Shown in pieces: positions 19,757-21,734 of a DNA stretch of 64,000 nt. The notes beneath the pieces were generated by a model. The model saw nothing but the letters and a program-made list of their open reading frames with translations, was not told where the DNA came from and ran no database searches. The position numbers and the translations under genes were made by a program. Where the stretch lies: the IMG/VR virus record IMGVR_UViG_3300012344_000014, positions 42,581 through 106,580 of that record. One strand, given 5' to 3'. The stretch comes from a virus. Its lineage: Duplodnaviria > Heunggongvirae > Uroviricota > Caudoviricetes. The number at the start of each line of letters is the position of its first letter. Position 1 is the first letter of the stretch.

Positions 19757-19786
19757 ATTGCAGTCTGCCGCGTGTTTGTGTATAAT
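19757..19786 (+). promoter_or_regulatory. sigma70-like promoter (TTGCAG-18-TATAAT) for the HicA-like gene
   Basis: ttgcag at 19757 and tataat at 19781. The RBS is embedded in a gccac-aggag-gtggc hairpin. Confidence 0.5.
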
Positions 19787-19806
19787 AGCCACAGGAGGTG
19801 GCTTCA

Positions 19807-20019
19807 ATGCATAAGCCGTTAGGTAGCAAAGAGGTTATCTCGATACTCGAAAAGTAGCAGTGGCGCAAGCTCAAAAACCGTGGTAAGGGAAGCCATACGG
19901 TTCTTGAGAACCCTGAGAACGGGCTCCACGTTACGGTACCCCGCAGCAAAGAACTCCCAGCGGGAACCTAGAAGAGTATCGGGCGGCAAACCGGTGTGAA
20001 TTTTGATGATCACCGGTGA
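19807..20019 (+). CDS. hicA: HicA-like mRNA interferase toxin with two in-frame TAG codons (19855-19857, 19969-19971)
   Basis: MHKPLGSKEVISILEK-TAG-QWRKLKNRGKGSHTVLENPENGLHVTVPRSKELPAGT-TAG-KSIGRQTGVNFDDHR matches the HicA consensus (..LEK.GW...R..GSH......P......TVP.H.K.L..GTLK.ILKQAG.). The second TAG falls at the conserved Leu of 'GTL'. Ends TGA. Confidence 0.6.
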
Positions 20020-20032
20020 GCGACCTCGCTTC

Positions 20033-20073
20033 AAAATGGACGGCCTTCTACTGGGCATGTCCATTTTTGTTTG
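20033..20073 (+). terminator. rho-independent terminator after the HicA-like gene
   Basis: aaaatggac...gtccatttttgtttg hairpin plus T-tract. Confidence 0.55.
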
Positions 20074-20102
20074 TAAACGGCAGACCGCAATGATGGGGTG
20101 GG

Positions 20103-20720
20103 TTAAATAATTTCGTCCATTGTTTTCACAATGATGTCGCAGACTCCGTGCTCAAGGCAAAAAACGGAATCCAGTTCCCAGTCATTGTTGCGCTTTTTAT
20201 TCAGCAGCTTAGCAGGAATGTTGGTCTTCTTGAGGATATGTTCCTTCATGGCTTTTAGGGAACTTTTGTAGCTGTCGGCCGCGTCGAACACCTTGGTGCT
20301 GTCGCCGGAAAGGGAGGCGCTGCCCTCGTGGATTACAACGCGAGCGCGGGGAAGCATGAAACGCTTATGACCGCTGAGGAAGATGATACCAGCCGCTGAA
20401 GCGCACACGCCCATGTTAACCGTATAAACCGGCGTCACAGAGGATTCGATTGTATCAATGAAAGACCACATCATATCGGCGTCGCCGCCGTAATTCATCA
20501 GATACAGCCAGATCGGTTTGCGCTCATTGACCGGCTTGCCCGCGTCTTCAATGTTCCAGCGGAGGATCAGCCGCTCATACTCGAGCATGTTGATATCGAC
20601 TTCGCCGTCGAGCCAGAGTTTGCGCTCTTTTTCCAGCTTGTAATAGGATACCAGTTCAGGATCTGGCAACTGATAATTGCCAACGTTATCAGAAAGAATA
20701 GGAAGTACAAGTCCGTCCAT
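20103..20720 (-). CDS. clpP: ClpP-family serine peptidase
   Basis: ClpP-like fold length with 'GVCASAAGIIFLSG' catalytic-Ser region. Confidence 0.75.
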   Translation of the reverse strand: MDGLVLPILSDNVGNYQLPDPELVSYYKLEKERKLWLDGEVDINMLEYERLILRWNIEDAGKPVNERKPIWLYLMNYGGDADMMWSFIDTIESSVTPVYTVNMGVCASAAGIIFLSGHKRFMLPRARVVIHEGSASLSGDSTKVFDAADSYKSSLKAMKEHILKKTNIPAKLLNKKRNNDWELDSVFCLEHGVCDIIVKTMDEII

Positions 20721-20731
20721 ATGTTCTCCTC

Positions 20732-21442
20732 TCAGGATCTATGTTCTACGCTGTCAGCCCAGTTGGACACAACACCGCGATAGTTATGGGTCAGTTTACA
20801 GACGGCGGCAAAAGGTTCATATCTCGCCTCGGCCAGATAATCCACAAAGCCGGAATGTTCAGGCCGGTGATACAGATCGCACTGGCCGGTATGACCGATG
20901 ACGATTGTTTTGCAGCTGTCATGGATGCGGGTCAGGGTTTTCTTGAGCTCATCGAAGTAATAGTTCTGCGCTTCATCGATGATAACGACCTTATTTTCGA
21001 TGTTTTGCCCGCGGAAGAAGGTGTGGGACACACAGTCGATATACGCGGTATCCTCCTTTACGTTCATCATGTTCTCCTGCTTGACAGCGTGCATTACATC
21101 GATGCCGGCCTTGAGCGCCGCCTGATAAAACGGCTCGTTATAAACAGAGAGCTTATCCTGCACGGTGCCGGGGAGAAACCCGATCTTCTGTTCCTGTACA
21201 GGGGAAGTGACGTAAACGATGCCCTCATAACGCCCATATTTGACGAGCAGTTCGGCCGTCATAACTGCGATGGTTGTTTTGCCGCAGCCGGCTTTCGCAT
21301 CGCAGAGAACGATCAGCTTTTCGGGGTCCCAGATCGCGTCGCGAAACGCCCTCTGTTCGCCGTCAAGCTGGAGGCCGAAGAACGGATGATCGTCCAGTGT
21401 CTCCGGCGGGTTAGAATAATCGATAGTTTTTCGTTTTGCCAA
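20732..21442 (-). CDS. phoH: PhoH-family ATPase
   Basis: Walker A 'GCGKTTIAV' and PhoH-like core. Confidence 0.85.
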   Translation of the reverse strand: MAKRKTIDYSNPPETLDDHPFFGLQLDGEQRAFRDAIWDPEKLIVLCDAKAGCGKTTIAVMTAELLVKYGRYEGIVYVTSPVQEQKIGFLPGTVQDKLSVYNEPFYQAALKAGIDVMHAVKQENMMNVKEDTAYIDCVSHTFFRGQNIENKVVIIDEAQNYYFDELKKTLTRIHDSCKTIVIGHTGQCDLYHRPEHSGFVDYLAEARYEPFAAVCKLTHNYRGVVSNWADSVEHRS

Positions 21443-21470
21443 ACCGTATCATCACCTTTGCTTTTAATGG

Positions 21471-21499
21471 TTGTATATTGTCGCCCCGTGCCGTATAAT
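21471..21499 (+). promoter_or_regulatory. sigma70-like promoter (TTGTAT-17-TATAAT) for the second HicA-like gene
   Basis: ttgtat at 21471 and tataat at 21494. Confidence 0.5.
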
Positions 21500-21518
21500 G
21501 AGTGCGGAGGTGATTTTC

Positions 21519-21734
21519 TTGAAGAAGAACATATCTTCTCGGGAAGTTATCTCAATACTCAAAGAGCACGGATTCGTAGAAGACAAACGCCGGAGGACGG
21601 GCGGAGACACTATCTTTGTTAAACAGGGCTAGACGTCACACGTAAAAGTCCCCACAGGCCGGGAGTCGATACGAATCGGTACTTAGGTTAGTATCGAGAA
21701 ACAGTCCGGATTGCCCATTCGGTGTTAGCTGTAA
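21519..21734 (+). CDS. hicA: second HicA-like toxin paralogue with three in-frame TAG codons (21630, 21684, 21726)
   Basis: RBS ggagg then TTG at 21519. MKKNISSREVISILKEHGFVEDKRRRTGGDTIFVKQG-TAG-TSHVKVPTGRESIRIGT-TAG-VSIEKQSGLPIRC-TAG-L, ending TAA. The TAG after 'GT' is at the same position as in the first HicA. Confidence 0.5.

Follow-up and report, generated by a model that had tools for sequence, protein, structure and literature searches.

Introduction

Several groups of gut phages, including crAss-like phages, Lak, phAss-1 and the clades of Borges et al., use "genetic code 15", in which TAG is assigned to glutamine (bioRxiv 10.1101/2021.08.26.457843; PMC9523058; PMC10607447). The phage described here resembles them in many respects. 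In-frame TAG codons occur in conserved phage genes, a tRNA with the anticodon CUA is phage-encoded (here in relatives), and TAG is enriched in genes for late, lysis and accessory functions, with almost none in integrase and replication genes. In both cases the host presumably uses the standard code, and the proposed role of the recoding is that of a translational timer or a lysis-lysogeny safeguard. Unlike the code-15 phages, however, this phage very probably reads TAG as leucine rather than glutamine, with a putative suppressor whose origin is a tRNA-Leu-like gene and whose variable loop is short. Its TAG codons are also sparse (1.5% of leucine positions), usually one per gene and near codons 10-66, and the genes richest in TAG are antitoxin-less HicA genes and small membrane proteins. 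A further difference is that no release-factor or tRNA-synthetase gene is present in the parts examined.

Leucine is the meaning of TAG in NCBI translation tables 16 and 22 (chlorophycean and Scenedesmus mitochondria), and E. coli amber suppressors such as supP insert leucine as well. Because leucyl-tRNA synthetase (LeuRS) does not read the anticodon, a UAG-to-Leu reassignment is mechanistically easy. As in those cases, UAG would be decoded here by a derivative of tRNA-Leu. Those examples are organelles or laboratory and spontaneous mutants, whereas here the code would be natural and virus-encoded, in a host for which TAG presumably remains a stop.

Among known toxins, the HicA genes come closest to those of type II HicAB systems such as that of B. 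pseudomallei (PDB 6G26, 4C26). One of the two copies studied here, HicA1, shares with them its profile, predicted fold and Gly-Ser-His motif. In contrast to these systems, no recognisable HicB accompanies the genes, which form monocistronic cassettes within a phage and have amber-interrupted translation; HicA1 lacks the nearly invariant Gly18 and the second copy, HicA2, lacks the catalytic His. The phage itself is most like SPbeta and other large temperate siphoviruses of Firmicutes, with matches to YonB, YomX and YomG, a very long tape-measure protein, a large serine recombinase and a genome size of about 110-125 kb. We know of no recoding described for SPbeta itself.

The explanation that we favour, at a probability of roughly three in four, is that an SPbeta-like gut phage reads TAG as leucine by means of a suppressor tRNA, and that its HicA proteins are made in full length only when the suppressor is present.

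Results

The window belongs to an SPbeta-like phage of the human gut

The window, meaning the whole stretch of 64,000 nucleotides that was analysed, is part of an SPbeta-like human-gut phage of about 112 kb, which is probably temperate. Its genes are also found on a 112,235-bp contig (logan:SRR1747039_750) and in many other gut assemblies, of which ERZ26858507 NODE_409 reaches 25 kb upstream of the tape-measure gene, and relatives have Pfam matches to YonB, YomX, YomG, tape-measure protein, terminase, serine recombinase, SpoIID and others. We found no nucleotide match in the INPHARED phage collection, and the phage is absent from JGI metagenome contigs. Distant relatives, with PhoH at most 66% identical, have no HicA genes, and distant IMG/VR relatives show no in-frame TAG near PhoH. 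An NCBI contig with a homologue of a gene in the flank past the window's right end was uninformative.

Two HicA-family genes are interrupted by amber codons

A preliminary description of this DNA had reported two HicA-like toxin genes with two or three amber codons each, and had proposed a profile search for HicA. Both reading frames are present:

19807-20019, + strand: HicA1, ATG start, TGA stop, 70 aa, Gly-Ser-His intact; in-frame TAG at 19855-19857 (codon 17) and 19969-19971 (codon 55)
21519-21734, + strand: HicA2, TTG start, TAA stop, 71 aa, Gly-Gly-Asp replacing Gly-Ser-His; in-frame TAG at 21630-21632 (codon 38), 21684-21686 (codon 56) and 21726-21728 (codon 70, the penultimate one)

When the search was run, both copies matched Pfam HicA_toxin (PF07927, cut-off 27 bits) over the full profile (1-58/58) and across their TAGs. 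As had been suggested, full-length protein must require amber suppression. With X placed at the TAG positions, HicA1 scores 52.6 bits and HicA2 33.7 bits; overall the scores run from 52.6 to 57.6 bits for HicA1 and from 33.7 to 36.1 bits for HicA2. Both also match PHROG 353 ("toxin"), and sequence searches retrieved solved HicA structures. A structure model of HicA1, computed with X at the TAG positions and a supplied alignment, has a pLDDT of 88.5 and the elements H7-15, E20-22, E30-35, E40-45 and H57-62, a predicted alpha-beta-beta-beta-alpha fold of the double-stranded-RNA-binding type. Foldseek aligns this model with B. pseudomallei HicA (6G26) at an rmsd of 1.3 A and a TM score of 0.72, and with 1WHZ at a TM score of 0.81.

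The residues at the active site separate the two copies. In an alignment of 46 sequences, G28 and H30 of HicA1 are invariant and S29 is nearly so; position 18 is Gln in HicA1 and Gly in 45 of 47 homologues. In HicA2, Gly-Gly-Asp occupies the Gly-Ser-His columns and the catalytic His is gone, so the locus likely holds one toxin rather than the two originally described. HicA2 is probably not a nuclease, and its residues make an RNA-binding or regulatory paralogue more likely than a toxin.

HicA1 and HicA2 are genuine HicA-family genes under purifying selection. Both regions are 100% identical across seven independent assemblies, and in variants that are 87-95% identical every HicA TAG is kept and the frame stays open beyond it; the TAGs are therefore not sequencing errors. 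Among diverged variants (dS up to 0.29), dN/dS is 0.27-0.36 for HicA1 and 0.10-0.25 for HicA2.

The HicA genes stand alone, with no recognisable antitoxin

We examined the surroundings of the two genes, which contain the following features:

19391-19419, + strand: promoter-like site ATGTCA-17-TATAAT with TG, scan score 10/12, upstream of the small ORF
19516-19680, + strand: small ORF of 54 aa, upstream of HicA1 and co-oriented with it, TAG at 19582-19584
19759-19786, + strand: candidate HicA1 promoter TTGCAG-16-TATAAT, read from the sequence, -10 kept in variants
19787-19803, + strand: hairpin AGCCAC-AGGAG-GUGGCU, ribosome-binding site in the loop and 3' arm
20033-20067, unstranded: intrinsic terminator hairpin where HicA1 and the ClpP-like gene converge, A run before and T run after
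21471-21499, + strand: candidate HicA2 promoter TTGTAT-17-TATAAT, read from the sequence, -10 kept in variants

Much of the setting first outlined for these genes holds. Both are solitary on the + strand and flanked by minus-strand operons, and the terminator after HicA1 is real (-23.6 kcal/mol, z -3.3, none of 200 shuffles as stable, with a T run). The regulatory signals at the 5' ends stood in part. Each copy had been credited with its own promoter, and each does have a perfect -10 element, but the -35 elements match at only 3 of 6 positions, the spacers are 16 and 17 nt, and the consensus scan called neither site; across the HicA region that scan gave promoter-like sites no more often than shuffled sequence (3 vs 2.9). 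Likewise, the hairpin said to sequester the Shine-Dalgarno sequence of HicA1 does hold the ribosome-binding site, but its fold is modest (-12.6 kcal/mol in a 45-nt context, z -1.6, 15 of 200 shuffles as stable), and its closing A-U pair becomes G-U in variants.

The absence of an adjacent HicB was borne out by profile searches: a Pfam search (E <= 0.05) of 57 small proteins from the 64 kb window found neither HicB nor any other antitoxin family, and the neighbours of the HicA genes have no match in PHROGs or PADLOC. The small ORF at 19516-19680, already described as unlike HicB, has no Pfam, PHROGs or PADLOC match. Its frame and TAG are kept in four of five diverged lineages, with a frameshift in the remaining one, and the leader at 19420-19515 is about 97% conserved between lineages vs about 70% for the ORF. 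The ORF is a real but fast-evolving gene, and it or another unrecognised antitoxin may be the partner of HicA1.

HicA1 could be a conventional toxin held in check by the small ORF, by the dead HicA2 or by an RNA, with its TAGs incidental. The ORF lies where the first gene of an antitoxin-toxin pair would lie, behind a strong promoter-like site and a highly conserved leader; HicA2 retains the fold-defining residues of the family without the active site; and TAG occurs in clearly non-toxic genes too. Against this, no antitoxin family was matched in the three databases, the lineage with the frameshifted ORF retains HicA1, production of the ORF's own protein would need suppression, and TAG is much denser in the HicA pair than in the genome on average. 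On balance we regard a hidden antitoxin as improbable.

In-frame TAG codons occur throughout the genome

In-frame TAG had been put forward as a control device of the HicA genes. It is not specific to them: the window holds 23 in-frame TAG sites in 17 of its 85 genes. The terminal stops of the 85 called genes are TAA in 43 cases and TGA in 42, and TAG in none. Besides the HicA genes, those with TAG include genes for tail fibres, holin-like, RemA-like and PAPS-reductase-like proteins and small membrane proteins; the list also gives one CTG site at which an orthologue has TAG:

2630-3811, + strand: tail-fibre-like gene, TAG at codon 29; readthrough puts its start 9 nt past the stop of the preceding gene
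4548-5759, + strand: tail-fibre-like gene, TAG at codon 24
8790-9608, + strand: tail-associated Gly-rich protein, TAG at codon 35, where paralogues have Q or L
9913-9915, + strand: CTG (Leu), codon 11 of the gene at 9883-10488; TAG at the same position in the L001 orthologue
13747-14250, + strand: secreted or membrane protein, TAG within a hydrophobic signal segment (ILLT*VFMM)
15174-15488, + strand: holin-like small membrane protein, TAG at codon 15, adjoining the SpoIID/SH3 lysin
26852-27064, - strand: glutaredoxin-like protein, TAG at codon 23
31067-31444, - strand: RemA-like protein, TAG at codon 34, a column that is Ile in the solved homologue
38131-38421, + strand: small membrane protein with two TAG, paralogue of 38548-38805
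38548-38805, + strand: small membrane protein with two TAG; GL*GM aligns with SLLGM of the paralogue
42202-43116, - strand: PAPS-reductase-like protein, TAG at codon 134, within the domain
59997-60326, + strand: small membrane protein with two TAG in hydrophobic segments; gene call less certain

The sites lie mostly within the first 66 or so codons, and seven fall in membrane or signal-peptide segments. The RemA-like and PAPS-reductase-like Pfam domains span their own TAGs. TAG also interrupts essential genes such as those for terminase, tail tube and tail fibres, and the only TAG of the serine recombinase lies four codons ahead of its TGA. With leucine read in, the tail-fibre peptide across the TAG site is DASAEYKK[L]DIVEYEGNGYIVLK. 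No release-factor or aminoacyl-tRNA-synthetase domain was found in the proteins scanned. Public gene calls end the RemA-like, tail-fibre and YonB genes prematurely, at TAG.

TAG very probably encodes leucine

Three kinds of evidence in the coding sequences indicate the residue inserted at TAG. First, at eight independent orthologous sites with identical context, TAG in one lineage corresponds to CTG, CTC, CTT or TTG in the others; at several of these the Leu codon is two mutations away from TAG, and glutamine was found at none of the sites that passed the context filter. Second, among 47 homologues the GT-L column of HicA, at which both copies have TAG, is occupied by Leu in 33 and by Gln in one. 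Third, when each residue was placed at the TAG positions of the HicA, RemA and PAPS domains, the summed Pfam scores were highest for Leu (192.9 bits), followed by Ile (187.8), Ala (185.4), Tyr (183.3), Glu (182.5) and Gln (181.2), leaving Leu 11.7 bits above Gln. A few sites are contrary: codon 18 of HicA1, CAG (Gln), has become TAG in variant L062, Gln occupies a TAG column in one tail-protein paralogue, and in the fast-evolving ORF at 19516-19680 a TAG pairs with Lys.

Close relatives of the phage (75-90% nucleotide identity) encode a 77-nt tRNA with the anticodon CUA, on the same strand as the structural (late) gene block and at its head:

L066, 1301-1377: tRNA(CUA)
L067, 1908-1984: tRNA(CUA)

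The two score 43.3 and 43.9 bits over their full length against the Rfam tRNA model. In the D arm and the 5' anticodon stem they hardly differ from the adjoining phage tRNA-Leu(UAA), and among the tRNAs called at bacterial-genome matches of the D-arm motif TGGTGCAANNGGCAGACAC, 71 of 73 are tRNA-Leu. The tRNA has G1-C72 and the discriminator base A73; bacterial tRNA-Gln has U1-A72 and G73. Its variable loop is short, unlike that of canonical bacterial tRNA-Leu. We infer that the LeuRS of the host charges it. A search of the genome collection with the D-arm motif returned chromosomal tRNA-Leu genes only and no related prophage, and the suppressor's anticodon-arm pattern has no match in IMG/VR.

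In the window's own genome, the 84 kb read of about 112 kb (the window and two 10-kb flanks) contain no tRNA, so tRNA(CUA) is known from relatives only; the window and these flanks have no match to any Rfam family. Sequence identity links the relatives to it: L054 shares 89% with the window's genome, L066 and L067 share 78-81% with L054, and between L066 and L056 the figure is 91%. The window's genome would be expected to carry the same suppressor within a further 18 kb or so.

We conclude that the clade very probably reads TAG as leucine, one of the two residues, with glutamine, guessed in the preliminary description; the orthologous sites, the GT-L column, the Pfam scores and the D arm all point to it. 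That this is ordinary code 15, with HicA genes that merely reside in a phage reading TAG as glutamine like crAss-like phages, Lak and phAss-1, is very hard to sustain. Every paper that we found on TAG-recoded phages assigns glutamine, and the L062 codon and the paralogue column agree with that assignment. However, all eight orthologous sites pair with leucine codons, the GT-L column and an 11.7-bit difference favour leucine, TAGs lie within transmembrane segments, and the suppressor has G1-C72, A73 and a tRNA-Leu D arm. An apparent alignment of TAG with Gln in an all-against-all comparison of ORFs from 42 IMG/VR relatives disappeared once the best-scoring frame was chosen; it was an artefact of antisense ORFs, which turn CTA, CTG, CTT and CTC into TAG, CAG, AAG and GAG.

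Decay of two hicAB remnants by nonsense mutation would fit several stops in short ORFs, the missing partner gene and the lost catalytic His of HicA2, but is barely credible given that the TAGs and the frame downstream are kept at dS up to 0.29 with dN/dS of 0.10-0.36, that the ORFs have neither TAA or TGA codons nor frameshifts, that the profile matches run full-length across the TAGs, and that the same codon lies within essential genes.

TAG is concentrated in the HicA pair and other solitary small genes

Although TAG is genome-wide, its distribution is uneven. It is concentrated in small + strand genes that are solitary among minus-strand operons. Of these, the HicA pair has the highest density, with 5 TAG vs 9 Leu codons, against 18 vs 1530 for all other genes of the window (Fisher p = 8e-7). 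The counts are 13 TAG vs 82 Leu codons for the isolated small genes on the + strand and 5 vs 1191 for the minus-strand genes (p = 5e-12), an enrichment that could be inflated by the three small TAG-bearing + strand ORFs added to the gene list by hand. Of all TAG and Leu codons taken together, TAG accounts for 13 of 95 in the isolated small genes, 5 of 271 in the late block and 5 of 1196 in the minus-strand early genes. TAG is absent from the phage's canonical AbiEi/AbiEii toxin-antitoxin pair. The density in HicA and the TAG-free AbiEi/AbiEii pair make it plausible that suppression acts as a gate on the antitoxin-less HicA.

Discussion

Under the reading that we favour, ribosomes in a cell without the suppressor, such as a lysogen or a cell early in infection, would halt in HicA1 at codon 17 and in HicA2 at codon 38, releasing harmless short peptides. 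Full-length HicA would have to await transcription of the suppressor along with the late genes. We propose that an mRNA-cleaving HicA1 would be tolerable without HicB because its translation is gated in this way.

A fuller version of this reading holds that a novel code, UAG read as leucine through a virus-encoded derivative of tRNA-Leu with a short variable arm, is the sole safety catch on orphan toxins; such a code would be one so far undescribed for any virus or bacterium. The HicA mRNAs would be made from their own promoters in the lysogen, yet could not be translated, and toxicity would follow the appearance of an amber suppressor. Induction of the phage itself would then shut off the host, and a superinfecting amber-suppressing phage would likewise trigger toxicity, making the cassette a "code sensor" that sets off abortive infection. 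We hold this version to be unlikely as a whole.

For annotation, the standard code breaks the genes of this phage clade, and if TAG is leucine, pipelines that apply table 15 (Gln) place the wrong residue at every recoded site of a common human-gut phage clade. If true, a UAG-to-Leu suppressor that occurs naturally and has a short variable loop would be a new kind of virus-borne code change, and genetic-code engineering could take it up as a ready-made part. For the study of toxin-antitoxin systems, the HicA genes offer a testable case in which a code unreadable to the host, and not an antitoxin, would make a toxin harmless.

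Two HicA-like genes carry conserved in-frame TAG codons

We examined the two HicA-like ORFs singled out in the preliminary description, whose locations proved correct:

19807-20019, plus strand: HicA1, ATG start, TGA stop, TAG at codons 17 and 55
21519-21734, plus strand: HicA2, TTG start, TAA stop, TAG at codons 38, 56 and 70

Their identification as HicA also held: each matches the Pfam HicA_toxin profile from end to end, through its TAGs, and still clears the curated threshold when the TAG codons are entered as X, and each matches PHROGs family 353 'toxin'. Sequence search with HicA1 retrieved solved HicA structures, and its predicted structure (pLDDT 88.5) can be superposed on 6G26, the HicA of B. 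pseudomallei, with an rmsd of 1.3 A and on 1WHZ with a TM of 0.81. HicA1 retains the Gly-Ser-His motif, in which G28 and H30 are invariant and S29 nearly invariant in the homologue alignment; HicA2 has Gly-Gly-Asp at these columns. Sequencing errors were ruled out as the source of the TAGs because the HicA regions are 100% alike in 7 independent assemblies, and all HicA TAGs and the entire downstream frame are retained in 5-6 lineages of 87-95% identity. Among diverged lineages, dN/dS is 0.27-0.36 for HicA1 and 0.10-0.25 for HicA2.

In-frame TAGs occur across an SPbeta-like phage genome

By exact-protein look-ups, the window maps to a contig of 112,235 bp and to many other gut assemblies of 110-123 kb, one Hadza sample included. 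Judged by gene content, it is part of a large SPbeta-like siphovirus, with YonB, YomX and YomG domains, a 2055-aa tape-measure protein, tail fibres and a SpoIID/SH3 lysin. Further phage genes encode a large serine recombinase, a tyrosine integrase, NrdD, ThyX, dUTPase, SHMT, PhoH and a ClpP-like protein, and the replication set comprises an intein-containing DNA polymerase III alpha, a primase-helicase, a ligase and SSB. Two minus-strand regions, 32578-37494 and 24534-26855, are of note here: the polymerase carries an intein (Intein_splicing domain), and NrdD of the related contig L059 is called as two pieces of 617 and 160 aa. At 38881-40535 (minus strand), a PARP catalytic and WGR domain protein is directly followed by a macro-domain protein matching DarG; the two may form a phage ADP-ribosylation writer/eraser pair. 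In the related contig L054, a HigB-like toxin gene and an HTH/peptidase gene are inserted 3' of the tape-measure gene (17550-18954, plus strand). This insert is absent from the window's genome, and toxin cassettes therefore differ between lineages.

Genes were called with TAG as a permitted sense codon and ranked by codon usage. Seventeen of the 85 genes called in the window carry 23 in-frame TAGs in total, and the final stop of every called gene is TAA or TGA. TAG-bearing genes include three tail-fibre-like genes, where read-through restores tight gene spacing, genes for a signal-peptide protein, a holin-like protein and a glutaredoxin-like protein, and those for RemA-like and PAPS-reductase-like proteins, whose Pfam domains extend across the TAG. 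Three more encode small membrane proteins with two TAGs each in hydrophobic segments:

38131-38421, plus strand: small membrane protein
38548-38805, plus strand: small membrane protein
59997-60326, plus strand: small membrane protein

Two of the three are paralogues, and all are isolated among minus-strand operons, as the HicA genes are. In relatives, the terminase gene has a TAG at codon 35 or 36, and further genes with TAG include those for YonB and a tail-tube-like protein. The in-frame TAGs of the HicA genes, reported in the preliminary description, are confirmed as real, but its interpretation is only partly supported and must be extended from the HicA pair to a code change across the genome.

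TAGs lie mostly within the first ~66 codons, also in genes of 400-560 codons, which suggests that without a suppressor, termination would give short peptides only. Long genes with TAGs near codons 10-66 are found at 2630-15488 of the window and in the relatives L054, L066 and L067; examples are terminase (35/36), tail fibres (24, 29, 35), the tail-tube-like protein (33) and YonB (54). In L054 (8143-9795) and the relative L056 (7274-8926), one TAG (codon 122) links ORFs of 121 and 397 aa immediately 5' of the tape-measure gene. A programmed frameshift at this position makes two tail chaperones in other siphoviruses; by analogy, TAG read-through might replace it here.

The evidence points to leucine at TAG

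An early signal for glutamine in distant relatives was discarded as an antisense-frame artefact. Within the clade, eight independent sites shared by orthologues have TAG in one lineage and CTG, CTC, CTT or TTG in the others with identical flanking residues, including the window's own CTG at 9913-9915 versus TAG in the relative L001; no glutamine was found among the orthologous TAG sites passing the context filter. In the GT-L column, TAG in both HicA copies aligns with Leu in 33, Val in 4 and Gln in 1 of 47 homologues. Using candidate residues placed at all TAGs of HicA1, HicA2 and the RemA-like and PAPS-reductase-like proteins, we rescored Pfam; summed bits were highest for Leu (192.9), followed by Ile (187.8), Ala (185.4), Tyr (183.3), Glu (182.5), Gln (181.2), Ser (180.8), Lys (180.1), Gly (176.0) and Trp (175.1). 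Seven TAGs fall in hydrophobic stretches, either membrane or signal segments, and one of them aligns with Leu of a paralogue. There are counter-examples: HicA1 codon 18 is CAG but TAG in the variant L062, a TAG column of a tail protein is Gln in one paralogue, and TAG pairs with Lys at one site of the fast-evolving ORF 19516-19680 and with Trp at one site of a doubtful ORF. Taken together, the valid evidence points to TAG being read as leucine in this phage clade.

A probable tRNA-Leu-like suppressor is encoded by relatives

No tRNA genes were found in the window and 20 kb of its flanks. Walking along relatives' contigs, with a chimeric query that recovered two flank proteins at once, we reached a tRNA cluster in L066 and L067, 2-3 kb upstream of the terminase block. 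In both, it contains a 77-nt tRNA with anticodon CUA that matches the Rfam tRNA model full-length (43-44 bits); its ARAGORN label 'Pyl' rests on the anticodon alone. In this tRNA, the first pair is G1-C72, the discriminator is A73 and the variable loop measures 5 nt. The corresponding positions of bacterial tRNA-Gln are U1-A72 and G73, and LeuRS recognizes A73 and D-loop architecture, not the anticodon. The tRNA(CUA) closely resembles its neighbour, the phage tRNA-Leu(UAA), in the D arm and 5' anticodon stem, which are almost identical, and in a bacterial genome sample 71 of the 73 tRNAs called at matches to the D-arm motif are tRNA-Leu. Because tRNA(CUA) is known from relatives (identity is 89% between L054 and the window's genome, 78-81% between L054 and both L066 and L067, and 91% between L066 and L056), we infer a suppressor in the window's own genome.

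The tRNA-Leu(UAA) of L067 (1662-1737, plus strand) is 76 nt long with a short variable loop, unlike canonical bacterial tRNA-Leu; many bacterial tRNA-Leu calls sharing the D arm in the genome scan are also 74-79 nt. L066 carries another tRNA (15-139, plus strand; Rfam model 49 bits), missed by ARAGORN, with a ~60-nt anticodon-loop insertion that is presumably an intron.

Signals and neighbours of the HicA genes

Upstream of each HicA gene lie TTGnnn, a spacer of 16 or 17 nt and a perfect TATAAT, but the consensus scan called neither site, and promoter-like sites in the region are no more frequent than in shuffled sequence; we regard both as plausible candidate promoters. The proposed intrinsic terminator of HicA1 stood, with the hairpin at 20033-20067 (z -3.3, fold versus shuffled) a convincing two-way terminator, while the proposed ribosome-binding-site hairpin exists as a fold but is weak (z -1.6). 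The HicA genes had been described as orphans, and in agreement, no HicB or other antitoxin family was matched in Pfam by 57 small window proteins, and the neighbours of the HicA genes gave nothing in PHROGs or PADLOC.

ORF 19516-19680, on the same strand upstream of HicA1, is a real gene: its frame and own TAG are retained in 4 of 5 diverged lineages, with a frameshift in one. The leader 5' of it (19420-19515, plus strand) is ~97% conserved between lineages versus ~70% for the ORF and may be a regulatory RNA element; it has no Rfam match.

TAG enrichment and possible gating of the HicA genes

Stop-codon recoding in gut phages is already established, with TAG as Gln and TGA as Trp or Gly throughout the literature found. 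In the literature searched, which did not cover all journals, we found nothing on a leucine assignment in phages, genetic code 16 in a phage or HicA with amber codons. A phage that reads UAG as leucine via a tRNA-Leu-derived suppressor would differ in this respect from the recoded gut phages of the literature found.

Of the Leu-plus-TAG codons, TAG accounts for 1.5% in the whole window and for 5 of 14 in the HicA pair (Fisher p = 8e-7). The share is 13/95 in ten isolated plus-strand small genes within the minus-strand early region, versus 5/1196 in minus-strand genes (p = 5e-12). A complete, canonical abortive-infection system was also detected:

54012-55567, minus strand: AbiEi/AbiEii pair, type IV toxin-antitoxin (PADLOC, 245.5 and 249.9 bits)

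Unlike the orphan HicA genes, this pair has no in-frame TAG. The enrichment fits the published idea that recoding holds back harmful or late products, whose translation has to await synthesis of the suppressor (bioRxiv 10.1101/2021.08.26.457843). By TAG density, the orphan HicA genes would be the most heavily gated in the window, and the enrichment, together with the TAG-free AbiEi/AbiEii pair, gives indirect support to amber suppression as a putative antitoxin substitute for HicA1.
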